NCBI GenBank assembly: GCA_905178155.1
Contig: CAJINV010000001.1
Span: 5,920,788-5,984,787 of the forward strand
Length of the DNA: 64,000 nt
Direction of reading: 5' to 3'
Origin: Amoebophrya sp. A120
Lineage: Eukaryota; Protista; Dinoflagellata
The notes beneath the pieces are model-generated. The model was not told the origin of the DNA. It was given only the letters and a program-made list of their open reading frames with translations, and made no database searches. The position numbers and the translations under genes are program-made. Of the stretch, positions 6,776 to 62,440 are shown piece after piece. How positions within the stretch are numbered: position 1 is the stretch's first letter; each line of letters opens with the position of its first letter.

Positions 6776-8654
6776 ATGCGTCACGAGGTGGAACGGAAGC
6801 GATTCGACTGGAGCGAGCGCATCGAGCGGTCCCGCGTCGACCCAGCCTTTCAGACGGAGCCGGCCGAAAAGATTTTGATGGGCCCGTGGAGCAAAGAGAA
6901 CACCGTCGTCCATGCCGTCTCTCAGCAGCTAGATCCCGTGGTGGCGCAATTTGTCGACTTCTTTGACCTGCCACAGAACCTGCGCGGTAAGACTTGTTTG
7001 CCTGTATTTTTATCCTTCTTTCTTCGAATGACACTAGCTACCGAGGAGTTCTCACCTGCTGCGTTCCGAAAACGGACGCTGCGCTAGTGCGACGAAGGGA
7101 GATTTTCGCCGCCATCCTTGTCTAAGTTAAGTAGCACGATTCGTCTGACATCTTTATCATTTATTTCTGCCACTGCAGGAAAGTTAAAGTATCAACGAAT
7201 CCCCCTTGGAGCATCTGTAGCAAAAACCAAAAAAAAAAATGAATCTACAAATCCAGGCGTGAATCTCGGCTACGCGTTTTTGCACTTTCGGAGCCGCAAG
7301 ATTGCAGCGCGGTTCACGGAGCTCTTGAATGGGATGCGGTGTCCGGGGAAGAGCGTGAAGCGCCTCGAGATGATATTGCAAGGAAAAATCCCCCCTCCCC
7401 ATATTGAAAACGCATCCGTTTGAAAATTTGTGATGCAGATTTGCAACCACAAATCGCACCTGTCTTGCAGGAAGCCAAGCGCAGGCTGTCCGCCACGTTG
7501 TGCAGGCGATTTGTAATGCTGTAAGGACTACCGGGCAGCCGTCTACCATGCTATGCGCCTACACCAAAAGGCCCCTACTTAGGCTTGCGACCTGCGTGCA
7601 GTCCTAGCATTGCAAGACAAGTCTGATTTGTGTATGCAAATCCAGCATCACAGATTTCCTGTTCGATATGGGGAGGGGAGATCTTCCCTTTTGATAGATG
7701 ATGGTGACGACGGCGCGTCGTATCCCCTTTATGGATGGCATGCGGCTGCAAGAGGTGAATATCCAGGAAAAAAACTGTGTAAGTGTAACTTTGTAGGAAG
7801 AGCAGCATCACAAATTCGTTTTGCATTACAGAAAGAACCTGTCATGCGCGGATAGTACGTGAAAACACGTATGAAACACGTCTATGACGCACTTCCAGCA
7901 TGACAAGCGTAACTGTTTTGCATTTTTTGCATCACAGATTTACATCACTTACACAGTTTTTTTCTTGCATAGTGAAGCCGACGCGTACAATGTTTTGGTT
8001 CGACGAGGAACGGTATCAAATGCAGAAACGTCTGGGTCTGGAAGAATGCATGTTTGTCATGCTTGTCTGGCATGACTCGAGAATTTGTGTTGCCTAGGCA
8101 CGAAAAGGCCCTCTTGCCTGTCATGCAAAAACGCAGTTTGCCATGCGGAATACGTAAGACATGGCAGCCAGAAAATTTGTCATGCATAGGTGCGTATTGC
8201 AGTGCGTCTATCATTCACTTTTAGCATTACAAGTTTCCAGACCCAGACACATTTGCAATCCATAAACGATTTCCGGACATTCTGGCCGAGTCCATGTTCT
8301 GTTTGAAGCGACAATCGAACGTCATATCAAATGCAAAAATGTCTGGGTCTGGAAGAGTCGGGGCTTGCCATGCACATTTTGCATGACCCGTGAGGTCCGT
8401 GATGCTGGTGCTAGCATCACAGATTTTTTGAGAGCTTCTTGATGCTAATTACGCATGAGAAATGCCCTCACCGCGTGCCAACAACTGACTCCTCTAGCTG
8501 CTCATGCAACACAGATATTTTTAGAATCCGCAGACAGCATTACAAGTCCCAACCTTCCAGACCCAGACATATTTGCAATCCATACGTCAGCTCACACAAC
8601 AACTCGCTCAACCGTCGCGCCCAGTATCCCGGGCCCACCGGCCGGGGCTGGTAA
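6776..8654 (+). CDS. Mei2-like RRM (RRM_2-type) RNA-binding protein; further 5' exons possible from about 6000
   Basis: GT-AG intron 6987-7256 gives VDFFDLPQNLRGVNLGYAFLHF...FTELLNGMRCPGKSVKRLEM. Removing four introners continues the frame as MVTTARRIPF...EVKPTRTMFWFDEERFPDIL...GRGW*. This resembles the Mei2 RRM3 motif DFxYLP...NxGYAFxNF. Confidence 0.75.
7374..7696. mobile_element. Introner family B (323 bp), DR GATGA
   Basis: TATTGCAAGGAAAAATCCCCCTCCCCATAT ... ATATGGGGAGGGGAGATCTTCCCTTTTGATA. DR at 7369-7373 and 7697-7701. Removal restores RLEM|MVTTARR. Confidence 0.93.
7760..7971. mobile_element. Introner family C (212 bp), DR GTGAA
   Basis: TATCCAGGAAAAAAACTGTGTAAGTG ... CACTTACACAGTTTTTTTCTTGCATA. 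DR at 7755-7759 and 7972-7976. Removal restores EVK|PTRTMF. Confidence 0.93.
8014..8264. mobile_element. Introner family A1 (251 bp), imperfect DR AACGG/AACGA
   Basis: TATCAAATGCAGAAACGTCTGGGTCTGGAA ... TTCCAGACCCAGACACATTTGCAATCCATA. Removal restores DEER|FPDIL. Confidence 0.92.
8325..8584. mobile_element. Introner family A2 (260 bp), DR CGTCA
   Basis: A-type TIR with a different interior, which is the reverse complement of 12021-12275. DR at 8320-8324 and 8585-8589. Removal restores QSNV|SSHNN. Confidence 0.92.
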
Positions 8655-9168
8655 ACAGGGCGACGCGGACCTAGAATTCAATGGTATGATCGACGAACTT
8701 GAAGATGATCTGCTCTTCCTCTTGTTTGTGGCAAAGAAAAATGATTCGTACCGCAGTACTGTACATTTTCGTCGGTACGCGAAAGATGCCGAAGCTGCGT
8801 ATAGGTTCGGCCTGGTCAGCTTTGAGTTGTCCTCGGAGCTGATTATATTAGATATCAACATTCAATATAAAAAAGTTAGGATACTGTACTATTTGAATCT
8901 GCAAGAAGCGAGCCTTGCATTTTTTTTTTGTGTGTCACAAGAACCGGGCCTGGAAGTAATTATAGCCTAGATGTGCTGCCAAGTAGATTCTCTTCACTAG
9001 AAGGACTCAGCACTTTCTCCAACTTCAATTTCACGTATCTGCGCATGATAGATTTAGGTACTGGTTGCAAAAGAAAGACCGACTGCTACGCCGACTGATA
9101 CGTTCGATCAAACTTCGGTTGCATCTTATTTCTTCGCAGATCCAACTGCTACACTTCTATCTTGCAGA

Positions 9169-11480: not shown

Positions 11481-13641
11481 ATGTCAGCCACTCAGTGTCC
11501 GGTGGGCACCATGGTGTGGAGCGAATGGACGCCCGGAAACCGCAAAGTCGCTGTGGTTTACGCGTATTACCCCGATACCAACTTCTACCACTTAGATTGG
11601 ATCCACCAACGGGCGTTCTGCCACGATCTTCGCTCTGGTCACGAGAATGAGGACCGGTTCAAGGTGTATTGTCAACGACGACCGTGGCAGGTGCACATAT
11701 TAGATGATGAAGATGAATGCTTGTTATCATTTTTACGACCACGACGATAATTAACGACTTCGAGGATGCAATTCCATTGATACTTACACAGCCCACCACG
11801 ACCTCCAATTTTACTATTTGGTTAGCGCATCGCACGATTCCTCCAGTTTATTACACCACATCAATCGAAATTCCTTTTCCCGATATGAAGATTTTCAATC
11901 GAAAAATCTAGATGTGGCACCACTCGAACCAGAACGCGTGCGGGGCGTTCGAGGGGGGCAGCTCCACCCCGGGCCTGCAACAGGGTGGGGACGACGTGAC
12001 AGTGGACGACGGGAAGGGGGTATGAATTGCAAATGTGTCTCGGTCTGGAAGGTTGCAACTTGTGATGCTGCATTTGGATACTACAAAAATCTGTATTGCA
12101 TGAACAGCAAAAGCGGTCTCGTTTCTGCCACGCCGAGAGGGCATTTCTCGTGCGGTATAGGCATCAGGAAGCTCTCGTCACAAAATCTGTGATGCTAGGG
12201 CATGCATCACAGACGTCAGAGGTCATGCAAACTGTGCATGACACCTTCCACACCCAGACATGTTTGCATTTAATAGGGGGTGTTCATCGGGCTGGGCGTT
12301 GCCATCGCGATTGTCTCCGCGTTGTACCTGTGCTACAAGTGGTATGGATGTGTCAGAATCGAAATTGACAAATATCGAAAACTTTGTGATGCATAAAATC
12401 GATACCAGTTGGGGCCTCAGTTTCCAAGTGGCGCATGACAAATTTCGGGAGCACCCAAATCCAGTCTGTCGTGCTGTTTGGACAAAGAAGACTGTTCCTG
12501 CCATGCTACTCTGGCAGCGCATTGCATACCCCTAAACAGGCTTACAATCGGTCTCAGTTGCCTGCTCCCCAACACAGGCCTTCAGTGCCCTGCATTTTAT
12601 GCATCACAAGTTTTTCGATTTTGTCGATTTCGATCCTGACACATCCATAAGTGGGCCCAGGGGGTCGTGCGGGAGAAGCACATGAAGGAGCATGGGGAGT
12701 ACCCGAAGAAGCGGACATCGTCGTTCCAGTCGCCGGGCAAGTCCGGCGGGTGGACGGCGTGGATGAAGGACGCGAGCTTCACCTGGAACAAAACCATGTC
12801 ACCCTGGAAGTCGTTTTCGCCGCAAAAGGACCTGGACAACCACGACGGTATTGCGCCCGGTGGTCACGCTCACGGGGGAAGCGCGAATAAACGGGATTCA
12901 TACAATCGCGGGCCGTCGCTGTGGGAGCTGGCGCAGCAGGAGTACGGCGGCCAACAGGTTGCTGGAGCAGAATTTCTACCGCAGCACCCTGGGCAGCTTC
13001 AACTCCAACACCCACAACTTCTGAACACTAGCGAGCACGAACTTCCCAACAAGAAGATGAACGGGCGCATAAGCAAAGGCACTGGAGGTGCAGCAGTTTC
13101 TGCGGCGGGACCGCCCCGCGACAGTCGTCGGCCTAGTCAGAACAAGCTTTACGGTGGGGGAAGTACTCACTCGATCGGGTCAACGGCCGCCAGTGCGACC
13201 GCATCTTCCGCGGCCCCAAGTGCGCGCGGCGTGTACAACAACAATCCGCCGTTGCCGAGTCCGAACTCGATGGAAGTCGTGTCTGTCGATTCTGCGGTCA
13301 CCCCCCGACACCCGGGCTTGGCGATCCTGAATCCCCTGAAACTGTTCCCAACCGACGAGGAAACCAAGCGGGGGTACAAGTTTCCAACCGGAACATCTTC
13401 AAGGCCAACTGGTGCAACTACTACTTCCCAACCAGCGTCTCGCCGCCCAAGCGTGGACTCGCAAATGAGCCGACAATCCGCGCAGATAAATCAGCGGCCG
13501 AGTAATCGGGTGGCGCCGGTGCCGCCGGGCGCTGCATCAACCGGAACAAGCACCTCCGCCTCTCGCCGCCCGTCACAAAACACCCAGCTACGCAATGGTG
13601 CGTTATCGTACCACGTGGCAAACAAATACGCGGTGCGCTAA
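11481..13641 (+). CDS. Hypothetical single-pass membrane protein with low-complexity tail
   Basis: GT-AG intron 11691-11911. Removing two introners rebuilds ...DDGKG|VFIGLGVAIAIVSALYLCYKW|AQGVVREKHMKEH..., a hydrophobic helix leading into ORF 12667..13641. Confidence 0.75.
12021..12275. mobile_element. Introner family A2, reverse orientation (255 bp), DR GGGGG
   Basis: TATGAATTGCAAATGTGTCTCGGTCTGGAAGG ... CCTTCCACACCCAGACATGTTTGCATTTAATA. Its reverse complement aligns with 8325-8584. Confidence 0.92.
12343..12649. mobile_element. Introner family D (307 bp), DR AGTGG
   Basis: Imperfect TIR of about 55 bp, TATGGATGTGTCAGAATCGAAATTGACAAA... / ...TTTGTCGATTTCGATCCTGACACATCCATA. Close copies at 43988 and 62168. 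Confidence 0.94.
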
Positions 13642-14460
13642 GAAGCTCGATTGGCGCAATTTATGATTTCTTCCGAATGTTTCAGCTCTACTTTTTTGTG
13701 TACGATAGGTATACTACAGCAGATTTCCACAGGTTTTATTTTCGTAAAGAGCAAGGCTTTTTAACCACGTTTGTTTGATGAAAGCATGATAAATCGTAGA
13801 AATTTATTTGGAAATTAACGCACCACAACACTAGGATGGGCAGCGATACTCGTGATTCTACATGCACCTTCTTGAAGCCGCATTTCAGTACTACCACCGG
13901 CTACAACGCAAGGTACTGAGAAAGCCTATTCGCGGAGACGCTGCCAAAAAGGTACACTAGAAGGAGCCATCGTCGTATACATTGAAACTGCATGTCGACA
14001 TAAAAATGAATTCAAATAAAAATAATAAGCGAGCACCGGAACACGCTCTCCTCTGCCTACAAGAAGTAGCGGGCTTTGGAACAGCCCTGTCGTATTTTCC
14101 TTATCTTACTATGGCAGAAAGAGAAACACAAGAACGCCTTTTGGTTTTCCTTTCGGACCCGTACAGTAGAGAGCGTCGTCGCAAATCGGCAAACAAATTT
14201 CAAAGTTGCATAAGGAGGATGGAAACAAATATGTGAGTTTGCGAAAGCACGTGGTAGGTCGGAAAAGAAGGTGGTGCACAAAATGACAGTTTCTTGAGAG
14301 AACAAGCACTTGGCAAAAAAGCTTTCTGATGCCCCCTGACATCGCTCATTTGGGAAGGAAAAAAAAAACACGCGAATACTTATCAACTCAGCAACTGATT
14401 TTGCATCCTCCCACGCGTATCTATTCGGATTAAGCCTTTATTCCCATCGTGAAAGCGGCC

Positions 14461-17400
14461 ATGAGAGCGACCCTCATGCCGGATCCGAATCTGACCCTGT
14501 CAATCGATATTTTGCTCGCCGGAGTAGCAGCTGCCGTGCTCTACCTGACCGCATCCGATGTTACCGGCGAGCACCAGTGTGTGATTCTCGGGCGCCTGCT
14601 ACCGCTGTTTCTGTTGTTCTTTTCTCTGCGCGTTGCCGTGAGTTGGAGTAAGAGTGGGTCGTCGACGGCACCAGCGGGATGCGAAGGTGGAACGTGTGAG
14701 CAGCGTGAGCAGAGCCGGTATAATCTTGGCCGAGGAGAATCACTGCTCGAAGCGGAAATCGAAGACGTTGAGCAACTTCAGTCATTAACCGCATCGAAGG
14801 TGGCCGGAATAAAGACACCTGGCAAACAGCAGCTAGTGGCGAGCAGAACAAGTTCCTTCTTGGGTAGCTCCTTTTATGAACCAGAGTCGATCGAGGTCGA
14901 GCACGAGGTCGAGGGGAACTACGCAATAAGCAACGCAGCTCCCGTGGAAGCGCTCGGGGCGCCAGTCCAGGATGTCGTGTTCCTTCCTCCGCAAAAGTAC
15001 CTAGCGGATGATATTGCTGCTGCCCACGAAGAACACGACGATGGATTTTATGGAAAAGAACGCGAAATGAAAAACGATGGGTCGTCGTCCTCGTGCCAAG
15101 AAGCGCAAGATACCCCGCCGCTCCTGCTCCATGACTTGTTTTCCAAGAAAACAAATTCGCACAAGAAGGCGGACGAGAAGGAGACTCCTGGAGGTCTGGG
15201 CCATACTGTGTTCGGTCGGAGGATGTCAGAGCCACGGACGTCGGAGGATGTCGGAAGTAGATCTGCGCCCCTGCCGTCTTGGAACGACCAGCCTACTTGC
15301 CGGAAAATCTTCCCGAGCGGCGAGTCCCCTGCGCTTGTCGCTTTGCGGTCCATTTCCGGAGAAGCGAGTCGAAAAAACAGCGGACAGCTCGGAGCTGATT
15401 TTTTTAATACTAGTTGCAACAGTCGCCGGTCGTCAAAAGCATCATTACCGTCTTCGCCAGGCCCGCCAACCCCCGTGTGCGCGGCGACCAGAAGTAATAC
15501 CAAACACGTCGTGGTAAAGATTGATCCGGTTCCGTTTCTCATTTCGCCGGTCAAGGAGGGCGGAGAGGAGAAGACAGGGCGACAGTCAGGGTCGTTCTAC
15601 GATGTTGAGCGAAGAAGGCCGTCGTTTCCGAGAGTCGGTGATGTGTCGTCGCTTGCAGGAATGGCAAACAGCGACGCTCCTGGAGTAGCGTCCTGCGAAA
15701 AACCGCTTTTGAAAAGATCTTCCGACTTTGTGACGACCGCGATGGTGGTTTTGTCGCGCTTCCTACCGTTCGTTCCTGGCCGGAACTCGAGCATTTTTTC
15801 CACTGGGGATGATAGGGCGAGCGTTGACCTTGCCCATAAAAATCCTCGACGAACTACAAGCCTCAGAAGATCACGCAGAGAAACAACAACGGTTCAACAT
15901 CTTGCAGAACATTCAAAAATCTCAAGCACCACGCAAAGCAGAAGCAGCAGCTGGAGGGCGGTTGTACTGCGTCAGCAAGCGCGTCTTGCGCAGTACGAGA
16001 TTAGCGGGATGCACAGCGCGATCGCCGGGTATTTTGTCGCCATGCTGGCGTTGCCGCCCATGTGGTTCGTCCTGGTGGTTGCGGCGCTGCCCGGGCTGCG
16101 GAGTAGCCAGCTGCTGTACTGCTGCGGCGTGTATGTGGTTTTCCGTTTCATTGTTCCACTCATCACCTCCAGCGTTTCCCATTGGCCCATCGACCCTTCC
16201 ACGGCCCTATTCTTGCAGAAGATTTTTCTGCACTACGGCCCGTTCTGGGACGTCGTGTGCGACTTCTGCCGGCCCGTGAACGCTTCTGTTAAAGTTCCGT
16301 GGTTCGCACTCTTTCAAACCTTGCTGGACATCATCGCAGCTGTTGCTCTACTCGTTTGGTTCCTGATCTTGCACGAACGGGGGATGGAAACCGTGCAGGC
16401 AGAAACGCTCGCGTCACAAGCTCGCATGTACCGCCGCCGCAAAGTGTTGCACCAGATGCTGCCGCCGTTCGTCGTGGAGTCGTTTCTGCTGCGGCAGACC
16501 GTTTTTTCCGAAGCCATTGGCGACGTCACAGTTGTGTTTGCGGACATCGAGAATTTCACCGACCTATTGCAGTACTGCGATTCAGATCGGAAGAGCGTGC
16601 GGAGACTCCTGCGGCGGCTCGACCGGCTGTTTTCGCAGTACGACGCGGTCTGTCAGGACTTTTTCGTGAGCAAGATTGAGAACGTGGGGGAGACCTACCT
16701 TGCGTGCGGCGGGCTGCGCCGTCACGTGCAGGCCCGGAACGAGGCGCTGTGCGGAAAATCGGTGGTGTTGGAAAGGTACAAGCGCTGGTCGTCGACCGTC
16801 GGGGCGGAAGCGCTGCGCGCGGACCAGAAATCCGCAATGGACGCGTATTTCACCACCCTGTTTGCCTGCGAGTTGATCCGCTACGGCGAAGAAGGTGTTG
16901 TACGTGGGGCGGTCGGCACGGGAGAAGGCGAGCGTCGAGACGTGGTCGGTGATGACTCGTCGTCCATCTGTAGTTCTTCTGCGCATACAAGAATCATGAT
17001 GTCGCCACCATCCACAACGAAAAATGAAGAGCACGGTCTTGTTTCGCCTGACAAACCACCATCACGTGTTGATGAAGTCGTCGATGATCATGGTACGGGT
17101 ATGGTGCCGTTACAAGAAGACCAAGCGCCAGCGTGCTCATCTCGTGAAAATCATGAGGAGAACAAGCAGCAAGAGCAACAAGCACCCACAGCAGCGTCGC
17201 GTGCCATTTCTTACGTGCGATCAACGACGATCGGCGCAATCCGAAACTTTGGTTCTAGTTCGACAGACGAAAAAAAGTCTACGTACAGCAGCGCTGCAAG
17301 AAACGATAGTGACGACGTCGTTTCACTCTTTGAGAACATGTTGCAGAGCACCTCTGCTATTCCAGTTGTTCCGGCAAGTAGGAGCGTAAACAAGGGGGAA

Positions 17401-19832
17401 ATCTACTTCGCAGAGTCTGAATCTTGTTCCCAACAAGAGAACGCTCCTTCTGGCTGTGGAGATGATCTTCTTCTGCTGAAACTAGGTGACCTTCCGACGC
17501 CGTGTCGCACCCAGGCGAATGTTCCGCTGGACACAAGAAGTAGAAAACCCGTCGACCAAAGAATAGCAAGGCGGCAAGCAATACAGCAAATGCCCTTCAA
17601 TATCCGAGTTGGAGTGCACACTGGTCCTGCGTGCGCGGGAATTGTAGGCTCGCGGAAGCCGCAGTACGCAATTTTCGGCGACACAGTAAACACAGCTGCG
17701 CGCATGAAGTCCACCTCTTCCAGCAACACGGCCGTGCACGTTTCCAGCGCTACACACGCACTCTTGTTACGGTGTCGCGGCGCGACGCAGCCCCAATTCA
17801 AGACACCGTGTTCGAACGCAGCGGATGATTTTGGACTCAGGATTTCGGGGCCGGTAGACGTGTTTGCCAAGGGGAAGGGGACGGTCGAAACCTGGTACGT
17901 CGAACCGACGCAGAAAAGCAAGACGGAGCTGCAGAGAGAGGGGTTAAATCAAGGAAAGAACAAGACGGACTCAGCTGAAGACGAGCAATCCTCCTTCGGG
18001 AGGCAGGAGAGCTTTCACGAGACAGAAAGTAGTCGTGTAATCGCCGCGGCGGAAGAAAGATCAGAAACGGCACTGAGCAACCAGTTGAAGAGCTTAACCT
18101 CGGACAATACTAGCGGAGCCAACATTTTACTGGGGCGATCGTGCGCGCAGGCCCGTGATCTTCCGAAACTAGACAGAGAGGAGGACTTTCAAGTTCGCAC
18201 GAGCGAGCATGGTGTAGTTTACCAAGAGAAGTTTCCAAGCGGCGAAGTAGAGAGCAGCAGGTTCTTCTGCGGAGATACAACTGACCAGAAACCGACATCT
18301 GGGCGGACCAGCATCTTACCAGTGGCGATCATGTCTGACTTTCTGAAAACAGCAGTGATGACGTACATTTTTTTGGACACCGGATCGGCCTTTTTTTCGC
18401 AGAGCTCACGTCCGCTGTCCACAGTCGCGGCACTGCTTTTGATCGGTCGGATTTTCCTTGCTGCAGCGTATTGCTTCGCGACACAGGAGTGGCAGTTGGT
18501 CGCAGGTGTAGCGCTTTTTGCTTTGTCAGTTGGCGCGAACTTGGCAGTCAGCGCAGAAGCTGCAACACTCAGCCCTCGAATGGTTTTGTTTTGGATTGCC
18601 GTAGCAGCCTTTTATTGCGACGCAGCTTCCTCGACGCAGAAAGGCATAACCGCGTGTGTGGTTGTGGTCATTCTTTCCGGATCGGCGTATCTTTTACTTT
18701 TAGTCACTTTGAGAAGGGACGAGAGCGACAGCGAGTACAGTAACTCCACAACAATCGCGGACCTGGTTCTTATCACGCTCCTGAATGTTATTGCAGTGGT
18801 AGTCTTCCTTATGAAAAACACTTCTTCTGCTGCGATGAGGAACTCTGCTGCGGATCTCTTGACAGCCGAGCGGAACCGCGAAAGTCGTGCGGAACAAATG
18901 CTGGCGGACCTCTTGCCGGCGGAGATTTTGCAGAAACTAGCAGGAACGACGAAACTCTCCGGGGACAGATTTAGTGTGGTGACAAGCCCAAAGAAAAGCA
19001 AGTCACTCGTCCACCACTGCTTTTCTGACAGTGCGCTACTTTTCGCAGATATCACGGGCTTCACCGCGTTTGCTTCAAAACGGACTGCAGCGGAAGTAGT
19101 TGCGGTGGTTACGGGGCTCTTTGCCGCTATTGATGACGCATCTCGACAGTGGCATGCTGTGTACAAGGTACAAAATGACTGGATAGGATTTTCTATCCTC
19201 TTCTTGTGCGTTGGTGCTGATTTTGTTTTTTGTTGTTGTGCGAACTGTCAGCACCCCATTCATTGGAGGAGCCAGTCGAATTCGAAAAAACTGGGTAATT
19301 TGCGTTAGGTAATGCTTGCACGAAAAATCAGGTTTGTACGATAGGCGACTGTTACGTTGCAGCGGCCTTCGGTAATCCTACACCGCGCGAAAACATCGTG
19401 CAGATGCTCGCATTCGCATTACGCATGCTCGAGCTCGTGCATGCTAATCAGCAGAACGAAGCCGAGCCGATCAACGTCCGCGTCGGCATACACTGTGGCT
19501 CTTTCGTGGGAGGAGTTTTAGGACAGCGCCAGCTGCGATTCGACATTTGGGGAGAGGATGTCCGAATTGCAAATTTAGTGGAGCAGGAGGGTCAGCCGGG
19601 TGCGATTTGCGTTAGTAAAGCAGTACAGAAGGTCGCTACAGCAGCGGAAGAGCTGATCAACGGAGAGGATGCGCAACTACTGCTTCTGGATGAATCAAAG
19701 TGGTCCTTTCAGTTTCATAGAAGCGTAGCAACGCGCACGGAAGGCAGAAAGAGCAGAGTTGCTAGTGAGGCACATATACCACCCCCGGAGGTTCTTGAAA
19801 TTTACAAATTAATAAAATACGCGAGCACTTAA
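14461..19832 (+). CDS. Membrane-bound class III nucleotidyl cyclase, alveolate-type guanylyl cyclase (TM-C1-TM-C2)
   Basis: C1: VTVVFADIENFT, KIENVGETY, IRVGVHTG, GSRKPQYAIFGDTVNTAARM. C2: LLFADITGFT, YK|VCTIGDCY across GT-AG intron 19168-19331, VRVGIHCG, FDIWGEDVRIANLVEQEG. Two hydrophobic TM clusters. Confidence 0.88.
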
Positions 19833-20418: not shown

Positions 20419-23400
20419 ATGCGTTTCGGCTTGCCGTTGCTCGCCGTCGGGGCATCGGCCCTGGCGGTCGAGAATTTTGACAATGAGGAGTATTTTGCGG
20501 ACCCGAGCGAGGCCCTGAACGCCTTCCACTCCCAGTATCGAAGTATGAAGGAAGAAGCCGAGCATCGGACAAAGCACATGAAGCCGGATGAAGCTCTGGA
20601 AATTTTGAAGGCAAAGCTGCCCGAGCACGACCACAGTCACTTGTCCATGCTCGCGCTGAAGGCACGAGACAACGGCACTTTGAACGTCCAAGAGATGGCA
20701 AAAGGTAGTCAGATCTGGCGTCTGTATTTTTTCGTAGTTCGAAGATCGGATTCCGATGCGTGTAGAAAACTCCCCATCACGAAGTTCCGTGAGTTTAGAA
20801 GCCACTTCGCACGTGACAAAGCACCATGTGCGAAAAGACGTTTTTTTTCTAACAAGAGACTTTTTAAATCCCAAAACCAGGTGTTGTTGCCATCAACAAC
20901 ATGTACAAGGAGACCGATCAGGAGCGCATTACCACCCTGACCACGTGCTCGCAAAAGCTGTACGCCATCTACCGCACGAACTTTATGATTGCAAAGGAAA
21001 TCAAGGGCTTGAACGCAAAGAGCGAGGACAAAAACCAGGTGTACGACGACGCGCAGGGGCAGAAAAAGGAGTTTCTGGATGACAAGAAGACCCTGGAACA
21101 GGAGCGTGAGCAGCTGAAGGTCGACCACGCCAACGACATGAAGGAGCCGCTGGCGATATCGAAGTGAAAAAAGCCCCCACCCCATATCGGAAACGGAAGA
21201 TGCGCGAATTTGTGATGCTGTATTTGAGTACACAAATCGACTTGTATTGCTAGAAGGCCAAGAGACGAAGCTGCGGCCTAAATTGCAGGCAATCTGTCAT
21301 GCTGTTTCCCAATTCCAGTTGCCGCCTGTCATCCTGGAGCTGCAAGGCTTTCCCACACTGGACAGCACTACAGTCCGCATCTTTTGCCTTCTAGCATCAC
21401 AGAGCTGATTTGTGACCACAAATCTGCATCACAGATTTCCGTTTTGATATGGGGAGGGGGCGTTTTTCATTGTAATAGGCGAAGGAAGCGGAGAAGGTCA
21501 CGCAGGAGCGTATTTTCACGGTCATTTTGAAGGGCATCAACGAGAAGTGCGGCAGCGGCGACCTGAAGCCGAAGACCAAGAACGCCATGCGGTTCCGCCG
21601 CAACCCGCAGGTCGCGCCGGAGTCCAACGCGACCAACGCCACCGCCGGGTCGGCGCCGTCCCTGGTGCAGAACAGTGAGGAGTTCACCGTCGACGAGGCC
21701 CGCGAAATGGACACCGCGGACGCCGAGTCGCGCATGTGCGTCGGCATGCAGCAGGAGTCCAGCATGAACCGGTTGTTCCTCTCGGTGTTCTCCAGCCCGG
21801 AGGTGCAGGAGGCCACGAAGACGGGTCTGGACATGGACTCGCAGAAGGCCATGGACATGACGCTCGCGAACCTGCGCGCCGCCGAAGACGAGGAAGTCGC
21901 GCCCAAGTACCAGAGCCAGGCCTTGTTGCAGAAGTCCCCGTCTCTGCAGGGGCCCTGGTCCGTCTCGGACGGTACCGACACCAAGTCGCCGATGTGCGGC
22001 TCCGTGGAGCAGATCGACTGCGACGTGCTCATGACCATGATGGGTGAGCAGCTGGAGTGCGCCCGCGAGGAGCTACGGAAGGCTAAGGGTATTAAGCTTT
22101 GAACAATTTAAATCTAAATTTGGTGCCGTTTCTCTTCTCCTCAAATCTTGTTGTATGTGCGGATCTAACTCTGGCCATCTGTTTTTATCATGAAAAATTC
22201 TTGTACGATATCTTCCAAAAATTCACTCCAGGTGAGCGTGCCGCGCTCGAGGACAAGCAGCGTGAGGAGATGCGTCTGAAGGACGGTTCTATCGTTGCCG
22301 CGCAGAAGGCCGCGGACACCCAGCAGAAGTTGATGAACGATGCGCGATCGACCGTGGACGGTTACAAGAGCCAGATCAGCGACTTGAAGGAGGAGCGCAT
22401 CCGCTACGCGAAGTCCATGCACCTGGAGAAGACTAAGTGCCACCTGCAGCTGTTCGAACTCGAGGCCAACGGCTTGTGTGCATGCAAGGCGCTCCGCAAC
22501 TTCTGGCTCAAGGAGACCCTCTCCAAGGCCGGCGTCGAGGACGACGCTGTCACGGACTGCGAGGTAATTACTTATTTTGTGATATGATAGCTTCGGTTGC
22601 TCGATTTGGGTTTATTTTTTGTGTGTCATTGTTCTTGGAAGTCGTGCGATGGTGATCGGCTAAATTTAGATATCAACACACTGCCGCCACACAATAACCT
22701 CATCTCACCGGTAAAAACCACTCCAGGCTGCCGACACCATGATGCCGACCGGCGAGTGCCGCATGGGCCCGAAGGCCACGGGTGAGATTCGCAAGTGCGT
22801 TGCCGGGAATAAGATGCCGGAGGACGACGAGCGCTTGCCCAACCGCAAGTGGACCCGGCAGATGGAGGGCGAACCGGGCCAGTCCAAGGACCTCGAGTCC
22901 CTGGGCGAGAAGCTGTACCTCGAGTGCCCCCCGGAGACCATGATCCTTCCCTGCAACCGCTTTTTGTGCCCCGTCGACTGCGAGGTCGGCGAGTGGGGCG
23001 ACTGGCGTGATTGCTCCGCGGAGTGCGACGGCGGCACCGAGCTGCGTGAGCGGTCCGTGGTTAAGGAGCAGGCCTTCTTCGGTCAACAGTGCCCGGACCT
23101 GATCCAAACGCAGAAGTGTAACACCCAGAAGTGTACCGAAAACTGCAAGCTCCACGCCGACTACGATGACGAGGGCGAGGGCTGCTTGATGGTGCTTATT
23201 ACTTAGCCGCTTTTTTTTTGATGATGCAAGTTGTTTTATGGCAAATTTCTTTTATATGCTCTTCAATGAGAGTCGCATAGCACAAAGTAGATCTGAATTC
23301 GTTGTTCTTTTGTCACGCAGGCTTGCGTCCAGCCGCTGTCCAACACGGAGTCTTCGGGCGCCGTTGCGTACGAGACCAACTACGAGATGGTGACCAAGCG

Positions 23401-25960: not shown

Positions 25961-26014
25961 GACGCCGCCGTGTAGGTGTGCCTGTATGACGCCGCCGTGT
26001 AGGTGTGCCTATAT
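25961..26014. repeat. 27-bp tandem duplication upstream of a gene
   Basis: GACGCCGCCGTGTAGGTGTGCCT(G/A)TAT occurs twice. Confidence 0.85.
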
Positions 26015-26117
26015 GCGTCGTCATCTCTGTGACATTCGCCTCCGGCAGCGCGCTCATCACTGAATTTTTTGTAATGTGTCATACGCACTAGAAGTAGTCT
26101 CAGCAGAGTTCCAAAGG

Positions 26118-40967: not shown

Positions 40968-43900
40968 ATGTCAGCAAGATCCGTGTCCCCGGGGAGCCGC
41001 CCGTACGCCCGGGTAGCTTGGAACCCAATTGGCCCGGGCCCTTTTACCCCGCGACTGCAGTATCCGGGTGTGATGACGACCACACCGCGGGGTGTTGTGA
41101 CCTCCACAACCATTGGCGGTGAGTGCCTGCTGGATATTAATGCGAAGATTTTTTAAATATGAATTTTTTCGTTTGTCTACTCTGGTTTTTTTCGTGTGAT
41201 CCGCACAGACCACAAGGACAGAAACCGGGTGTGCTCACAGTACTACTGAGCAGGTGAAATAATCCGATTGGCGTGTTTCTATCAGGTTCTTCCAGTATTC
41301 CGCTCGAACAGGCGGTGGCTTCGAAGATTTTGGCGCAAGCATCGGGTGCCGCGCAGACGCAGTTCGCAGCTGCGCCGGTTGTTTGGACTTCAGCGGCGAC
41401 GAGCGCCACAACAACGAAGTCGACCACGGCGTCCTCTGGGCCAACCAGTTTCGTTCCAACCAAGGTATACTCCGTTCCGGCGCACTACCAGGCGGCCAGC
41501 AGCCTGGCTACGCCGCGAGTGTCGACGCACCAAGTCGTCGGCTCGATGGTGGTGCCACAGCAGCACACGGGCAATCATTCGTCGACGCTGGACAATTCTG
41601 TGGTATCCGTGGCGTCCGCCCGTGGGCGGCGCGATGCAAGCATCAGCGCCACGTTGCGGACGCGGAGCCAGTCCGTGGCCGACCGCTTTGCCATGACGGA
41701 CCTGGACCGGAGCCTAATCACACCGACGTATAGGAATATCGGGGTCCCTGGCTTGTGCGGCAGCTCGCTGGTGAAGCCAGGAACGACCAGAGTGATCGTG
41801 GTAGAGAGGGAATAGTTTCGAGTTTTCTTGCTACTATGCTATGGTCACATGATCTTCCATCAATTCCGTGAAAACGGGCCTCATGTCGTTGTAAAAGAAA
41901 CTCTGACTGCTCGTCATTCTTGTAAAATTTTTGTCAACCAGAACCAAAAATATTGCACAGCGGAAGAGCGAGACGCGGGCGGCTTCTCCGGCACCGACAG
42001 TCAGTGTGTCCGTGCCGACAGCGATTGCGGTGCCACATACCTCGAGCACACGCGTCGCAACTACAGCGGCCACAGTGGTCGTGCCAACAAACTCTAGTAC
42101 CATACCCCACTCGCAGCGCATGGCGTCCACCATTTCTGAGCTGCCGACCCGCGCCTATCACAGCATGAAGTTGGCAAACGGCACCGAGCTCCTTGCCGCG
42201 GCAGCAACAGGTTCTTCGGGGGCTAGTGCCACGACCTCTTCCGCAGCGTGTACCACCACGACTGCTACAACCCCTTCCCGTGTCGTGGTGCCAGCGTCCT
42301 CAGGAGGACCTCCGGCTTCGGCCTACAACATTGTCGAGCCCACCGTTCTTGTGCAGCAGGGCGCGAGCAGAGTGGATGTCGAGGACAAGCAAATGCAGAA
42401 ATTCATGGAAATGAATCAAGGCCACCACCCAGGTGGTGCGGTGCAGCAGTCGACGTCTCTCACCTCCGACAGCACGACAGGGTCTTCGTTGCCTGCGACT
42501 AACCACTATCCACAAGAAACTTCCCGTACACGTACAAATGCAATCTCTGCATGACAAAACTTGCCTTCAATCCTAGTCCAGCATGACAAGTTGGACTCTG
42601 CAAGGTAGCGAAATTTGTCATGCATTTTGTACATGTACAGGAAATTTACATTGCATAACCACGTCTCGAGTTTGGGCAGCGACAAGCAGGGTTTGTCCTC
42701 TCCCGCCATGGTCATGGATACGTCCGCCGTGGAGAAGCACGAGTCTCGCTTCACCTCCGTGGAGGTTTCGCAAAGCCCCGTGCAGCCCGCAGTGAAAACT
42801 ACCAGCAGCTGTGCCTATTCCCCCGACGGCGCGCCGCTCCTGGCCGAAATTGATCTCTTGCGCTCCGAACTGGTCAAGGAACAGAGCGCGCGCAAGCACC
42901 TGGAAGGTGAAATGCACAAACTCGAAGCGCAGGTAGTGCCTAAGATAGATTTAGACCGACGTTCAGGGACGGCTAAGATGTTAATAGCGTTGTACCAGGA
43001 GACTGGATGGACTTTTTCACTTGTTATTTCCAGCCTTGAATGTAAGCCAAGGTTTATTTCAACTGGATCCTGCTGATGCTGAATAAGAAATTGCGCAGCT
43101 GGCTAAACTTTCTGCGGAGTTGGCGTCCAAAGACCTGGGTGGGTCCTGCTCAGGCAGTAAGAGCGAGAAAGAGCACCAGGGGACCGCGAGTACTTCCCTC
43201 TCGCCCACGTCGGCACGAGGGGCCGCGCATACTCATCAATTCACAGACGAAGCAGATTTGGAAATTCAAAAGTATTAAATAGCTGTTATTTGGTGGTTCG
43301 TTATGAGGTTGTGTATTGAAGAATAGATGATACTTGCTCGTTTATTACCCCGTTTTGTTGGGTAATACTACTACTACTACTGTACTCGCGCACTAGGTAG
43401 AAGTCGTAGAATAGATAAAAGCGTCGCCACTTCTTCACACTCTCTCTTCGCGTTGATACATGCAAAAGGACCTCCATGTTCTGAAAACACTTGAGGTACG
43501 TGAAAAAGAATCCCGATTTTCCCTACGCGATCGAGAAGATTGGGCGGGGTCAGTATGTGTTCGGGAAGGAAAAGAAGGAGGTTTTCAAGCGCGGGGCGGC
43601 GCTGCTCGTGCGGGTGGGCGGCGGTATTACAGTGAAATATGCCCCCTCCCCATATCAAAACGGAAATCTGTGATGCAGATTTGTGGTCACAAATCAGCTT
43701 TGTGATGCTGGAAGGCAAAAGATGCGGACTGTAGTGCTGCCTAGCGTGGGAAAGCCTTGCAGCTCCAGGATGACAGGAGGCAACTGGAAGTGGAAAAAAG
43801 CATGACAGATTACCTGTAATTTGGGCCGCAGCTTCGTCTCTTGGCCTTCTAGCAATACAAGTCGATTTGTGTACTCAAATACAGCATCACAAGTTTTCGC

Positions 43901-44328
43901 ATCTTCCGTTTCCGGTATGGGGTAGGGGCTTTTTTCACTTTGATAGGCGGAACGGAGAGCTTGGTGGACTACATGGAGCACCTGCATTATGAAAGTGTTA
44001 GAATCGAAATTGACAAAATCGAAAAACTTGTGATGCATAAAATCGATACCAGTTGGAGCCTCAGTTTCCGAGTGGCTCATGACAAATTTCGGGAGCACCC
44101 AAATCCAGTCTGTCATGCTGTTTGGACAAAGAAGACTGCTCCTGTCATGCTACTCTGGCAGCACACTGCATACCCCTAAACAGGCTTACAGTCGGTCTCA
44201 TTTGCCTGCGTCCCAATGCAGGCCTTCAGTGCCCTACATTTTATGCATCACAAGTTTTTCGATTTTGTCGATTTCGATCCTGACACATCCATATGCATCA
44301 AAAGGGAAGCGTTCGTCAAGCTGCGTGA
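40968..44328 (+). CDS. Low-complexity/coiled-coil protein with C-terminal GAS2 (GAR) microtubule-binding domain
   Basis: After removing the introners at 43625 and 43988: FPYAIEKIGRGQYVFGKEKKEVFKRGAALLVRVGGG|TESLVDYMEHLH|QKGSVRQAA*. VRVGGG-x-x-x-L is the GAS2 domain signature. Confidence 0.78.
42507..42657. mobile_element. Introner family H (151 bp), DR ACCAC
   Basis: TATCCACAAGAAACTTCCCGTACACGTACAAATGCA ... TGCATTTTGTACATGTACAGGAAATTTACATTGCATA. Removal restores ATNH|VSSLGS. Reverse complement of 50042-50192. Confidence 0.92.
43625..43945. mobile_element. Introner family E, reverse orientation (321 bp), DR GGCGG
   Basis: Close reverse complement of 21157-21477; it splits the VRVGGG motif. 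Confidence 0.94.
43988..44293. mobile_element. Introner family D (306 bp), DR TGCAT
   Basis: Close copy of 12343-12649. DR at 43983-43987 and 44294-44298. Confidence 0.94.
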
Positions 44329-45403
44329 TCATGATCAATCACCAGGGATGACGTGTAATAACCAGAAGGAATACATCACTTTTTCTCTACTCTGTGGATT
44401 CTTTTAGTACTTACTATATGAAGGTTCGCGTTCGCCATTGCCGAGAAAGCACATCAGCCGATGCATAGTACTCACACTGTTGAAAATCGCGCCCAGTGGT
44501 CTTGGTAAGCATGGGTTTCAAATTTTTTCAGGTGGGTAACTTTCCTCAATTGTTTTCTCGAGGACATGTTCGACGAAGATCAGGATGTATCCGGTACGAG
44601 AAATCGGTAGCAGGAAAAAAATCGACACGGCATCCAGTCAGATTGATGGAAACGACGCTCACTTGGCCTCGCTTCTTTGACGATGCCGTAACGGAAAAGT
44701 AACCAGTAGAGTCAGATTTTGCAATTTTTTCAGCTGGAAGATGGTGAAACGAAATTCGACCCGTATGTAAGCGATTTACAGGAGCCAACTACGTCTGGCT
44801 TGGCTTATCTGTGCATGTAAGTAGTCATTGTTTTCTAACGAAATCAAATTTATGATATCACGATTATAGAGAAAACGACCCCTGCCAATGCCACGAAAGC
44901 GTACAACTACAACAACACTACGAGCACCCAGAATTGCCTGCATCGCTTACAAAACTTCGAGCTACCGCCCCAGTTTCAAAACTCTCGATTTCATCCCGAT
45001 TCGCATCTTCACGCGAAGGGTATGGGCCTCACCGAATTTCTGACGAAACGGAGAGGGTCCTTCCTTTTCGCTCTAGGCATCAGTTTCTTACTCTTTCATT
45101 TGCGTGTTTTCTCTTCCTTCCCTCGCTGCCACAGAAAAATCTAACGACCAATACAAATTATCTTTTTCATAATTGATTACCAATTTATGCCTATGCCGTC
45201 TGAAAACGATTTTACGGTGGCTCGGCCTCACTTTCGGGCTTCGCTGCATACCTTCGCTTCCATCCGTAGTTTCATTCGATGGCGATGAAGCACCAAAACT
45301 GATCGCAATGCAATTCACAAGAAATGTAAATATTTTATCATATGTCCAGTACGTAGATTCGACGCACGGAAACGTAATATGTAGTGAGGTCACCGAACGG
45401 TTC

Positions 45404-46100
45404 TAACCGGGGAGTTTTTTTGACACCCAGACAGCAAAACGACAGGCAGTTTTCAAGCGGGCGAAAGTGTTTTTTGACGAAAAAAATTTGCACTTATCAA
45501 GCGGCCGGGGCTTTGTTGTCAAACAAGCCCGGTCGAAAACTATCGATTCGCACTTGATAAAACGACGCAGGGGAGCCGGCAAAAGGGGCGCCCTTCTGAG
45601 GCGCCCACCGCCTTGATTTCTGGCGATTTGGGGCGCCCAAAAAGGGGCGCGCAAAAAACGCGCCCAAAACCAGAACAGCGAAACAGCATGGCGCGGCCGC
45701 GATTTCGGAGCATTTTGGGCGGCCGCGAAAGCGGCCGCCTTTTCGCCGGTTTTAGAGCCTGGGAAGCTTTGCAAAAAGCGCTGGCGAGAAATATAAAAAC
45801 GCAAAAAAGAAAAAGCGCGCCAGACGCGCAAAGCCAATCCGCATGCTATGGGCCCGATTTTTCCTCGCTTTTTGGGCGCCCCCCGTGGCGCCAGGATCGG
45901 CCTCATAGCATGTGGGCTGGCTTTCGGAAAGGAATTTCGAAAATCTGCCAAAATTTGCGACGCTTATCAGGCGGCCGCCATACCGTGGGGCCTAACGTTA
46001 CTCACGGCGGTATGGCGGGCCCAGAAAAATCAAAGCCGCGGCCAAGGCGACGGCCGGCAAGAAAACGCCCACGACCTCACTACCTCCGCCTCGGCGGCTA
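45404..46100. other. Intergenic hairpin-rich island (GC stems alternating with A/T tracts), identity unknown
   Basis: GGCGGCCGC-GAAA-GCGGCCGCC at 45718-45739; 29-bp imperfect IR 45830-45858/45896-45924; CCGCCATACCG/CGGTATGGCGG at 45975-45985/46008-46018. Boundaries are approximate. Confidence 0.55.
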
Positions 46101-47254
46101 TACTTGGTATTTATTAATGCCAAGAAAAGTTAGAACTAGAAGTGAAGCCAAATGAACGTCCACACAACTCCAAGCAGAAAGAGGTAAGTCGCATACTATA
46201 ACCAAGAGCGCAGAGTTTAATAGCAGAAATAGACCAGATGGGATAAAAGTACAAGAGCCTAGGACCGCACGCAAGCATTCTCTAGCTCGATTCAAGTCGT
46301 CTTTTCTACACCCGAACACTATGTCAATATTTCTGCTCTGAAACAGAGCAAGCGTTATTTTCAGGTATTTAGTCTTTGTGTTTGTGCTGCTTCGGAGAGC
46401 AGTTCCCCTTCACGAGATTTACTCGTTCGCTTTCTCGCTTTCAAATATGTTCCCCGGCCTATGGCGCGTCGCGGTCGATCAGTCGATTTTCGGACTCAAA
46501 AAGTACAGCATGCGGGACGTTCTTGGGTACCAAGACCTGTCCGCGCGGGTACCGAAGTTGCACACAATCCGCCTTAAAGCTTTTGCTATATCATGCCCGG
46601 TGCTGGCGCATCGTCGGCTGAGGGAGAGTGGTGTCCTTGCTTGCTAGAGTGAATTTTGCAATTTTCCGCACGGCCTCGGTCGCCTCGTCTTCGGAGATGC
46701 TGTAGACGCCGTGTACAGGCAAGGAGAGTCACTATCATGGGAATTTCAGATTTGCTTTCGCTTTGTTTCAAAACAAGGATCCTACGTACCTGTAGTTTCT
46801 TCGGTAAGACGAATATTGGACCTCGTGAGGTCGTAGTTGTCACCAACTTTCTTGCCTCTATGCATGATGCAAGAGCGTCGATTTGGTCGATTTGAATTGT
46901 CGAAATAGTACTTACTACGAGCATCTACAACTATACCGCCCTACTTTCACTATCTATCGTTGTACCATAAATTCGTTACCCGTTGTTCTTCTATCCTGGA
47001 AATAACTGTGCGAGCACTCGCCAGCCTTTGAGGCTGAGTTACAGCGAAGTAACGAACTCATGCGTCAAGTCGTGTCTTCGCAGTTGCATGTGTTGCATGT
47101 GTAGTGTTACAACTCCTGGGATTCGGATTCCACACCAGTTGCTACGTTTGGACGTCGGTCGTGGAGTTAGTTATGGCGAGGAGCACGATTGTTCCTTAAA
47201 GCGGATATTGTCTACTCAGGACGACCACCGCAGTTTGTGCTGTTCCCCAGCACC

Positions 47255-50200
47255 ATGGCCTACGCCTTGCAACATCAGCACCCGTCGGTTTCGCGGCAGT
47301 CCTCCCGAGCGGCGCCACCGCCCGTGGTTCGACAGATTTCCCTCCAGACACTATTGAGAGGAAAAATCTCCCCTCCCCATATTGAAAAGGTATGTTTCCA
47401 AAAATTTGTGTTGCGCATTTGAGGTCACAAATCACATCTGTCTTGCAAGAAGACAAGGGCAGAAGCTTCCGCCCCATTACGAAAGCGATTTGTCATGCTG
47501 TTGGGCCCAAAGGGGGGACGTTTGCCATGCTGAAATACTAGACCCATACGCCCCTACCTAGCCCGGGGATCTGACCGCAATGCTTTCCTGCAATACAAAT
47601 CCGATTTGTGTACTCAGATCCAGCATCAGAAATTTCGTTTTGATATGGGGAGGGGGGATTTTTCCTTTTGATAGACACCGGGGCAGCTGGTGCAGCCGCG
47701 GATCGGTCTCGGGTTTGACCTAAACTCCCTGCGTCGCATATCCTGTGTAAAAATGTACCCACACCAGAGTTGTCATGCGACTTTGCCATGACAGGAACAT
47801 TTGTGATGCGCAACCCCATGACAGGCATTTTCAATCGTGTTTGGGAACTTGTAATGCTGTAAACAGGATTAGCAGATCGATTTGTGATGCGGCTTTCCTT
47901 GCTACCTTGCACTACCTTACGGACTGAAACTTGTCATGCGTGACTCACAAAGCTCCTAGGTTTGTGTTGCAAAATCCCCATCCTGACTCCGGTGTGGGTA
48001 CGTTTTTACTCAGGATATCGCACCGGCTACAGTCAAGATGGCGCAACAAGTTCTGCGCACATGGGACAGTCGCCCGGCGCTACGGGATCTTTCAATGCAG
48101 GCACCTCGTCAACAACAGCAACCGCGTTGCCGGGAGGCAGCAAGCAGAGCTACTCCTCTGCGACCGCGGTATACTCTCGAAATGAAATATTTGTTTCTGC
48201 AACGTGGAGGAGAAGTATTCTGAACTTCAGTAGTATACTTACAGAAAAGGCCGTGCACCTCGTCGTTAGTTTCCCTTTCCACAGGCACTAAGCATCTGAC
48301 GTCTCATTCGCTTCTTCTTGGAGGGGCGAAGATAAATGTCTTGATCTAAAGCGGCCCGATAAAATTAGACCACCAACTCATCTTGCACCTACAGATGTCA
48401 GTCCCTGTGCAGGCGAGCGTCCCACGGAGCGCCATCAGTCCCGGGTGGGTCCGAGGCACCACTCCATTATTGAGAGGAAAAATCCCCCCTCCCCATATCA
48501 AAACGAAGTTTCTGATGCTCGATTTCCGTACACAAATCAGGGCTGTCTTGCAGTACAGGATTGGAGGCATATGCCGTGCCTGAGTGCAGAGCTTCTGACG
48601 TGGACGCTTAGCATCACAAATGCCTATGCTGTAGCCCAGGTAGCATCACAAACCGCCCGCATAGTGCGGCGGAGACTGTAGAGCTGCCTTCTTGCAAGAC
48701 AAATGTGATTTGTGACCTCAAATCAGCAACACTCACAAATTTGCGGAGACGTAGCTTTTCAATATGGGGAGGGGGGATTTTTCCTTTCAATATCCATTTG
48801 AACAGACACACAACACGATCGAGAGCACCGGAAAGAGTTCCATGCCCGAGCACCCCTTCGTTCAACGAATGCAAAGCGCGCACCAAATGTCCCAGTTGGC
48901 GTACCCGCAGGTCACGCTGTCCCTGGATCGCAGTGTTCGTCCCCAGGCTGGCATAAATCCGGCCACTCCTGCTTCGCAGCAGGTGCAGGTGCAGACAACC
49001 ACTTCGGCCAGCAGTAGCAGTCGCGGCGGGTCTTTTGTGGACCAGGCAGCATTTCATCTGCAGCAGCAGTCGCGGTTTCACAGCACCGGAACGACGTCGA
49101 CGCAGAATAGACCCGCAACGGTGCTGACCACGGCGGCCGGCGCCGGAGGTCCTATGAAGGCCTACACGCCAACCGCGGCGATGGAGCAGGCGTATTTCGA
49201 TAATCGCACGATTAGTGACGTGGAGCGCATTGATGTGCGGCTGTTGCAAAAGGACCGAACCAAAGAGGCTGGCACGCCCAATAGCGTCTTTCGCCGAATC
49301 AGTGCTTCGAGCGGCATCGGCAGTGCAGCTGGAGTTGGTGCTGGTGTCAACGTTTCGCAATCTGGTGCGCCGAGCTCCTTGCTAAAGCCGGTGCTGATAC
49401 ACCAGCAGCAGGAAAATTTATCGCAAAGCGCGTCGAAAAAAACGTCCGCACAAGAAACGCTGCTCCGACAACATGCCGCTTCCCAGCCAAGCCAGCTAGG
49501 ACGTGGAGGCACGTCCTCTACTTCCTCCTCCGCCGGGCCAGCCACACGAAGTCAGAATATACCTGTAGCGGCTGTGGTGTCAGCAACCGAACCTCTAAAC
49601 ACCTCAGACGTGGTGGTTTTGGAGGTACTTGCTTAATATTCAGCAAACAAACATTAGAATGTCAATGTATCGACACGTAGAGCAAACGCCATAGGGTGCA
49701 ACCTGTAAGCATCGTACAACAGGAGGTTTGATATGTGAAAGAACTCATCGGGTAGATAAAATCTGGAGCCACAAACTGAATCTGAAACCAGGCCCAGCAA
49801 TCCTCTATTGCAGCGGACCAATCGTCTACCGTGAACCTGCTAGATCAATTTGGGGTCTCCCAAAGTGCGAGCAATTTGCACGCTGATCTCCGGGACACAT
49901 CTGGGTTACTACTACACGATGCTCCTCCGCCGCCAACGTTGCAGGTGAATCTCACAACCGCACCAGCGGCGTCGCGCGGCTCTCTGCCGCCCCACCGAGC
50001 CGCCGCGGAGCCGCGGATGTCCATGGAGTCCTCTCCGGAGCTATGCGATGTAAATTTCCTAGACATGTACAAAATGCATCACAAATGTCGCTACCTTGCA
50101 GAGTCCAACTTGTCATGCTGGACTAGGATTGAAGGCCAGTTTTGTCATGCCGAAACTGCATTTGTACGTGTACGGGAAATTTACTGTGGATAGGAGCCTA

Positions 50201-62428: not shown

Positions 62429-62440
62429 TTTTGGCTCAAG
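62429..62440 (+). other. Relic of the dinoflagellate spliced leader (3' 12 nt, TTTTGGCTCAAG)
   Basis: Exact match to the 3' end of DinoSL DCCGTAGCCATTTTGGCTCAAG, located precisely at the introner breakpoint. Confidence 0.7.

Follow-up and report, generated by a model that had tools for sequence, protein, structure and literature searches.

Amoebophrya sp. A120 is a marine parasitic dinoflagellate in which more than 60% of the introns lack GT-AG ends, and the way in which these are removed has been an open question since 2021 (PMC7789003). The introners of this strain have been defined by an inverted repeat that begins with TAT and continues with seven variable bases and then a run of at least three A, and are described as having direct repeats of 3-5 nt at the exon-intron boundary and a predicted hairpin (PMC7789003); a supplementary row in the literature on them (PMC7789003, PMC12130899) lists a Ginger-like A120 family with '5-bp TSD, TA/TA Termini', TSD standing for target-site duplication. 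In other organisms, Roy et al. reported that spliceosomal introner classes in Polarella make introns either way, as in Aureococcus (bioRxiv 10.1101/2020.10.14.339549), and Gozashti et al. 2022 allowed for opposite-orientation insertion in their methods (PMC9860276). The non-conventional introns of Euglena follow a code of three bases then CAG, and CTG then five bases, whose spacer length was tested by knock-in (PMC12501133). Here, we analyzed a window of 64,000 nucleotides of A120 (contig CAJINV010000001.1 of assembly GCA_905178155.1, positions 5,920,788 to 5,984,787, forward strand), this being the whole stretch of DNA under study, whose TAT...ATA elements are the published A120 introners, and found that copies in both orientations are absent from transcript contigs and annotated proteins, each together with five flanking bases, the length of one copy of the target duplication.

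The host strain was identified as A120 because three window exons (48794, 28826 and 21485) are 100% matches to its proteins, and the elements agree with the published introners in host, TAT repeat and A run, direct repeats, repetition and removal. Eighteen of them have TAT...ATA ends that match at 13 or more of 20 terminal bases and are flanked by a perfect 5-bp duplication, a combination absent from 49 of 50 block shuffles and found once in the remaining one. TAT ends were a search criterion; A occupies terminal positions 11-13 in 16-22 of 23 ends per side. Terminal inverted repeats and a target duplication of fixed length are also the traits of non-autonomous DNA transposons similar to miniature inverted-repeat transposable elements, and the Ginger-like A120 family in the literature shares this duplication length and these termini. 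For most copies, the ends are predicted to pair in either orientation, with a mean of 0.3-1.0 in 22 of 23 and of 0 in one with offset repeats. A subterminal motif, GCAWNACA, is present in 82 copies in 5.9 kb of elements versus 9 in 57 kb outside, and is repeated inward from both ends in steps of about 31-32 bases in a manner common to the families (for example in 27867-28145); it likely represents transposase binding sites. Rfam gave no matches, nor did a comparison of the terminal pattern with viral contigs.

The original prediction, made on the letters of the window, held that six element families occur as reverse-complement pairs and work in either orientation. These pairs were borne out by self-comparison, in which all six are present, and by alignment of the interiors after trimming 40 bases per end, in which the reverse complement is more similar than the same strand in 6 of 6 cases: clearly for families E (94 vs 64% identity), H (96 vs 51%), F (80 vs 61%), A2 (75 vs 57%) and C (72 vs 55%), and narrowly for B (68 vs 62%, 47352 against 48468). 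The B pair is weak alone, but it is consistent within a cluster of 57 members in which 0 of 906 edges are inconsistent.

Direct evidence of removal comes from assembled contigs of runs X1 and X3, which are one sample, typed as RNA by guess. GT-AG introns are skipped in these contigs too, and those without elements are also without GT-AG introns; therefore, they derive from mature mRNA. Runs X2 and X4 have scant coverage of introner-bearing genes, hence they contain no introner joints. Between 6600 and 21700, X1/X3 contigs join across 7 of 7 elements, always leaving out the element and 5 more bases, with record coordinates that leave no letters between, and single contigs run unbroken through five consecutive joints. 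The joints listed for this part include no go-back joint, though this does not bear on whether circles form. Among the 15 of 85 X1 joints listed, the element plus 5 is also skipped at 42507, 43625, 43988 and 45378. Removal is thus not confined to one orientation, since A2 (8325, 12021) and E (21157, 43625) are skipped both ways directly in RNA. Families B, C, F and H are completed by three annotated proteins, from which the element plus 5 is absent at 10 of 10 elements; these are gene models built on transcripts (PMC7789003), and removal at 47352, 47739, 48468 and 50042 is read from one of them, P0001. B 47352 and its reverse 48468 are both removed in one kinase gene, and an X1 contig piece starts at 48793, directly 3' of the latter.

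In all, the 13 copies named in the six pairs are removed as element plus one duplication (7 in RNA contigs, 7 in proteins, one in both), which restores the pre-insertion sequence at every one of them, so that both orientations restore the frame by one rule, as had been proposed. The inserts bring stops or shift the frame, and spliced RNA-contig paths open stop-free stretches over the junctions of 200, 465 and 636 amino acids on the + strand versus 113, 137 and 175 on the - strand. An orthologue from A25 and three more distant proteins are ungapped at the junctions of C 26730, A 27448 and G 28649, with one of the three distant proteins not reaching that of C 26730. At the junction of F 27867, gaps lie shortly upstream in the orthologues (7 residues in that of A25), and P0008 does not span the junction of E 21157. 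The strand was checked for the genes that host the 13 named copies: canonical joints in the RNA contigs read GT..AG on the + strand, and the three annotated proteins map to it. The claim that all host genes lie on + therefore stands for these hosts.

The orientation of the families was then counted in one environmental assembly, as the original prediction had proposed for the whole genome. The terminal pattern identified 119 loci that hold 254 distinct elements 76-95% identical to those of the window, 205 of them with a perfect 5-bp duplication. The host strand was predicted by two window-trained scores, one correct for 22 of 23 window elements and the other for 29 of 39 blocks; where both were strong they agreed at 44 of 46 loci, and a strand was called at 69 of 119 loci (191 of 254 elements). 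In silico removal of the element plus 5 keeps one coding frame in 102 of 151 cases, compared with 35-44 for +3, +4, +6 and +7; +2 and +8 score like +5, so that this test fixes only the frame. Clustering of the 184 elements in which no more than one of the 5 duplication bases differs placed 141 in 13 families and left 43 unclustered. In 12 of the 13 families, environmental copies are found both in the direction of the predicted host genes and against it, and the thirteenth, H, has both in the window. The largest family, B, has a ratio of 20:34 (p 0.076; 16:32 at clearly coding sites), and a mild orientation bias is possible there, judging from these predicted strands. A phase bias (57/29/35 of 121, p 0.005 versus uniform) was considered as a splicing signal and rejected, since it fits a symmetric target preference (p 0.16).

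The conventional signals of introns are not found at the element ends. At any equivalent cut, GT-AG is allowed in 0 of 20 window elements (GC-AG in 2, GA-AG in 1), so the GT/GC donor and AG acceptor of U2-type introns do not describe them. GT-AG is allowed in 7 of 157 environmental elements, without sense-strand excess, and the duplication NNAGG occurs 5 times in sense versus 3 in antisense; therefore, no pull towards canonical ends is seen. The 27 ordinary introns taken from the same genes, chosen as canonical, are strict GT-AG. These GT-AG introns (for example 6987-7256 and 28408-28580) have A-rich 3' ends, without a polypyrimidine tract or a shared branch motif (n=27). The base preferences of the duplication are approximately mirror-symmetric, C early and G late, and the machinery seems to need no particular duplication sequence. 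GCAWNACA was rejected as a branch site, because it is missing on the sense strand of F 47739, which is still removed, and is equally frequent at both ends (122 vs 125 of 157). With no strand-specific need in the duplication either, the proposal that recognition depends on the symmetric ends is sustained; orientation, interior and duplication sequence seem not to matter to removal.

Where the five bases are taken from is indicated by the copy at 45378, which X1 removes together with 1 left-hand and 4 right-hand flanking bases, without ambiguous letters, its flanks matching at 2 of 5 bases; a relative at L056 has the same ends and a 4/5 duplication. In the copy at 8014 the RNA keeps the right duplication copy at base 5, and therefore the cut is not after base 5. 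The 45378 copy belongs to a long GC-rich family (45378-46102; L056 343-1109; L070 from 1504) with a strong fold (z -6.8), a 3' repeat broken by a small extra hairpin and three copies seen, all in AT-rich flanks. In one environmental copy, a cut before base 2 would give an in-frame stop. The aligner BLAT slides introns towards GT-AG. It was used for the introns of PMC7789003, whose Table S4 has N-T 5' ends in all nine commonest A120 types; this fits the split into 1 and 4 bases but, given the aligner, is not counted as independent.

We favor, with a probability of roughly 0.55, removal at the RNA level that is guided by the ends and acts like a ruler, resembling that of the non-conventional introns of Euglena. 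A putative DNA transposase would insert the element at a 5-base staggered cut, indifferent to gene direction, as the observed structure suggests. Because the ends are inverted repeats, the transcript reads UAU...AUA whichever way round the element lies, as can be read from the copies themselves. The terminal repeats would probably pair as a hairpin, and cuts at a fixed distance, 1 base before UAU and 4 after AUA, would take away five flanking bases, with GT and AG unread, and return the old coding sequence exactly; cutting and joining would follow a route apart from GT-AG recognition, like that of Euglena. The 5-base rule is seen in 21 copies, the 1+4 split in one and bounded in a second. Hairpin-guided splicing, as suggested by the original prediction, does not count as a new idea, because the hairpin is already in PMC7789003, and it is the RNA-level, end-guided part that we prefer. 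Tentatively, and with somewhat less than even confidence, we propose that this ruler at paired repeats belongs to a second splicing system, free of the spliceosome and evolved independently of that of Euglena. If this were true, the 5-base offset would equal the duplication length of the transposase, so that family members could land anywhere, either way, and be erased from mRNA; the system would match Euglena by convergence and account for the tolerance of tens of thousands of coding insertions.

Several points weigh against end-guided removal by a ruler. All direct RNA evidence consists of assembled contigs of one sample, and the 1+4 split is one joint in one contig (45378), with which 8014 agrees loosely. 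In diverged environmental duplications the better fit is with the left copy in 16 of 26 cases (p 0.33). In the terminal stems, G-U versus A-C mismatches on the sense strand number 31 vs 30 in the window and 140 vs 172 in the environmental elements; without a G-U excess, there is therefore nothing to suggest selection for the strength of RNA pairing, and the ends could be read as sequence. Finally, the split gives a 5' end of N-U-A-U, which equals the host donors bar the first G, and a spliceosome fits this equally.

That a modified major spliceosome removes the elements as lariats, reading the repeat as the donor N-U-A-U on either strand and using an acceptor 4 bases past AUA, without AG, whose place would be set by the hairpin or by a protein on the 3' repeat, is a possible if rather doubtful explanation. 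The argument that orientation independence excludes the spliceosome does not hold; its premise is too strong, because terminal repeats give both strands the same letters and Polarella and Aureococcus have spliceosomal introners that function in either direction (bioRxiv 10.1101/2020.10.14.339549). Host donors have T at +2 in 27 of 27, A at +3 in 21 of 27 and, as the commonest base at +4, T in 10 of 27, in line with the N-T-A-T of introners under the 1+4 split. Moreover, A120 keeps 83 of 89 spliceosomal proteins, with U1 small nuclear RNA undetected (PMC7789003), whereas U1 is present in a relative with canonical introns (PMC12005148), and a review treats the case as spliceosome adaptation (PMC11282704). 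According to the same review, introns of Fritillaria that lack canonical ends have been reported to be spliceosomal. On the other hand, 157 insertions give no significant preference for G at +1, that is, duplication base 5 (64 in sense, above background at p 0.005 uncorrected, vs 48 in the mirror position, p 0.16), or for AG at the end (13 vs 8, p 0.38). A purine bias at duplication base 4, the last intron base, had been seen among window elements (21 of 24, p 0.0016 uncorrected), and was rejected as a signal when it failed in the larger set (93 of 157, p 0.52). No branch consensus is shared, removal does not require the subterminal motif and the neighboring ordinary introns stay strict GT-AG. 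The architecture is, in addition, a close match to Euglena, in which fixed-spacer complementary triplets are needed in knock-in (PMC12501133), which likewise speaks against the spliceosome.

It is very improbable that the elements stay in mRNA and that reverse transcriptase skips a hairpin between the 5-bp repeats, with ribosomes hopping over it. A hairpin with a short direct repeat is a known template-switching substrate, and the RNA data are based on complementary DNA throughout. Nevertheless, single contigs cross five joints unbroken, which indicates that the joined form dominates, orthologues match across the junctions of inserts that carry stops or shift the frame, and 45378 is skipped without a repeat. 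Ribosomal hopping over 150-330 bases several times per gene is implausible.

The original prediction also considered excision from DNA with pointer-like repeats. Ciliate internal eliminated sequences are removed seamlessly, leaving one short repeat copy, and here too removal is seamless and one copy is left. Run X5 is DNA-like, with an even depth of about 30, and is one run at contig level, possibly the source of the window itself. Its depth rises from 30 on the flanks to thousands over the elements, as befits genomic repeats, and its contigs continue from unique flanking sequence for 24-76 bases into element sequence. The proposed check for empty sites in genomic DNA, run on X5, gave none, with a depth of 0 at each joint among the 15 of 85 listed, in a comparison limited by the loss of rare forms from contigs. 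An X5 contig has an extra T at 34729, a possible assembly error or allele. Excision of the ciliate type, with the 5-bp repeat as pointer, is hardly credible, because X5 keeps the elements without empty-site joints among those listed, the environmental assembly has 254 such elements in place, element-free contigs are also without GT-AG introns, and 45378 is removed without a pointer (2 of 5 flank bases matching, one case). Rare or stage-specific DNA excision is still conceivable, though the pointer model fails on 45378.

The elements of the window are collected in Table 1. A protein search for an annotated protein spanning 58080 and 58622 gave no matches.

Table 1. TAT...ATA elements of the window, with their relative orientation or duplication and the evidence of removal (lengths in bases).
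Position	Element	Orientation or duplication	Evidence
1129..1381	family A element, candidate introner	perfect duplication	sequence only
7374..7696	family B introner	same orientation as 47352; duplication GATGA	X1/X3 RNA contigs skip 328 = 323+5
7760..7971	family C introner	reverse of 26730	RNA contigs skip 217 = 212+5
8014..8264	family A introner	duplication differs at base 5	RNA skip 256 = 251+5, 4 ambiguous letters
8325..8584	family A2 introner	reverse of 12021	RNA skip 265 = 260+5
12021..12275	family A2 introner	reverse of 8325	RNA skip 260 = 255+5
12343..12649	family D introner	same orientation as 43988	RNA skip 312 = 307+5
21157..21477	family E introner, TSP1/VWA protein gene	reverse of 43625	skip 326 in RNA contigs and protein P0007
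26730..26938	family C introner	reverse of 7760	214 = 209+5 absent from P0002
27448..27699	family A-like introner		257 = 252+5 absent from P0002
27867..28145	family F introner	reverse of 47739	284 = 279+5 absent from P0002
28649..28819	family G introner		176 = 171+5 absent from P0002
30624..30898	candidate introner	duplication 4/5	sequence only
42507..42657	family H introner	reverse of 50042	X1 RNA contig skips 156 = 151+5
43625..43945	family E introner	reverse of 21157	X1 skips 326 = 321+5
43988..44293	family D introner		X1 skips 311 = 306+5
45378..46102	725-nt element, 3' of stop codon	flanks match 2/5 bases	X1 joint 45376-46107
47352..47673	family B introner, protein kinase gene		327 = 322+5 absent from P0001
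47739..48017	family F introner	reverse of 27867; sense strand without subterminal motif	284 = 279+5 absent from P0001
48468..48792	family B introner, same gene as 47352	reverse of 7374/47352	330 = 325+5 absent from P0001
50042..50192	family H introner	reverse of 42507	156 = 151+5 absent from P0001
53749..53904	introner within kinase domain		161 = 156+5 absent from P0001
58080..58482	candidate introner	duplication 4/5	sequence only
58622..58769	candidate introner	duplication 3/5	sequence only

A further copy of family D, at 62168-62440 (91% to 12343), ends without a 3' repeat. Its break is followed by a 12-base stretch, of which this is the only exact copy in the window, and which presumably resembles the spliced leader over a longer part. 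The stretch ends in the five letters that end the spliced leader (PMC7789003), and a reverse-transcribed, leader-capped RNA may have been inserted into the introner. A stop-free frame of 261 codons (61709-62494), without Pfam match, runs through the truncated copy, which, having lost one end, may be read as coding. Among the genes of the window, Pfam identifies an adenylate/guanylate cyclase gene (14434-19832) and, as the host of E 21157, a gene for a protein with TSP1 and VWA domains (20419-25185), which we take to be like alveolate adhesins. A frame of 931 codons at 35755-38550, in which acidic S/E blocks alternate with K/P/A blocks in repeats of 81-99 bases, presumably resembles nucleolar phosphoproteins.

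The elements, the 5-bp duplication and the TA termini are already in print, whereas the both-orientation and cut rules were not found there. No statement that A120 introners work both ways was found in a search that left subscription papers, theses and figures largely outside: in the main text and supplement of PMC7789003 every 'orientation' concerns genes, PMC12130899 has the word once, in its methods, and lacks it in the 12 supplementary files searched out of 14, and the passages available of PMC12621601, PMC13326754 and PMC11170887 contain nothing on orientation. The feature is therefore real and confirmed; the system to which it belongs is known, and what is modestly new is a rule that can be tested. 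A specialist would be little surprised, given that both the elements and the idea of a hairpin have been published and that introners working either way have been described in other organisms; the rule distinguishes between a relaxed spliceosome and a second splicing system and can be checked genome-wide with existing data.

Compared with the A120 introners as described (PMC7789003, PMC12130899), which share the organism, the TAT-start repeats with an A run, the 3-5 nt repeats, the RNA-backed removal and the hairpin proposal, the window elements show nothing different in kind; orientation, removal of the element with one duplication, indifference to sequence and the 1+4 split are not stated in the available parts of those papers. 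Introners are likewise transposon families with terminal repeats and duplications that make introns either way in Polarella glacialis (bioRxiv 10.1101/2020.10.14.339549) and, as cited in the same paper, in Aureococcus anophagefferens, but they need near-canonical donor and AG acceptor letters, supplied by the element or the duplication and unneeded here, and show an orientation bias. The introns of Fritillaria borealis (PMC11282704) are transposon-derived, with terminal repeats, duplications and non-GT-AG ends; they differ in their preferred ends, AG-AC and AG-AT, and in that their removal is laid to an adapted spliceosome. Ciliate eliminated sequences leave the DNA, whereas here the DNA keeps the elements. 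The non-conventional introns of Euglena (PMC12501133, PMC11282704) share non-GT-AG ends, complementary triplets at fixed distance, direct repeats and a proposed origin from miniature inverted-repeat transposable elements. They belong to an unrelated lineage and use CAG/CTG with spacers of 3 and 5 bases, instead of TAT/ATA with 1 and 4; the euglenid CAG at +4..+6 and CTG at -8..-6 are absent from the window elements, which under the 1+4 split have T at +4 and A-T at -7,-6 in 24 of 24. Circular excision products have been demonstrated in Euglena.

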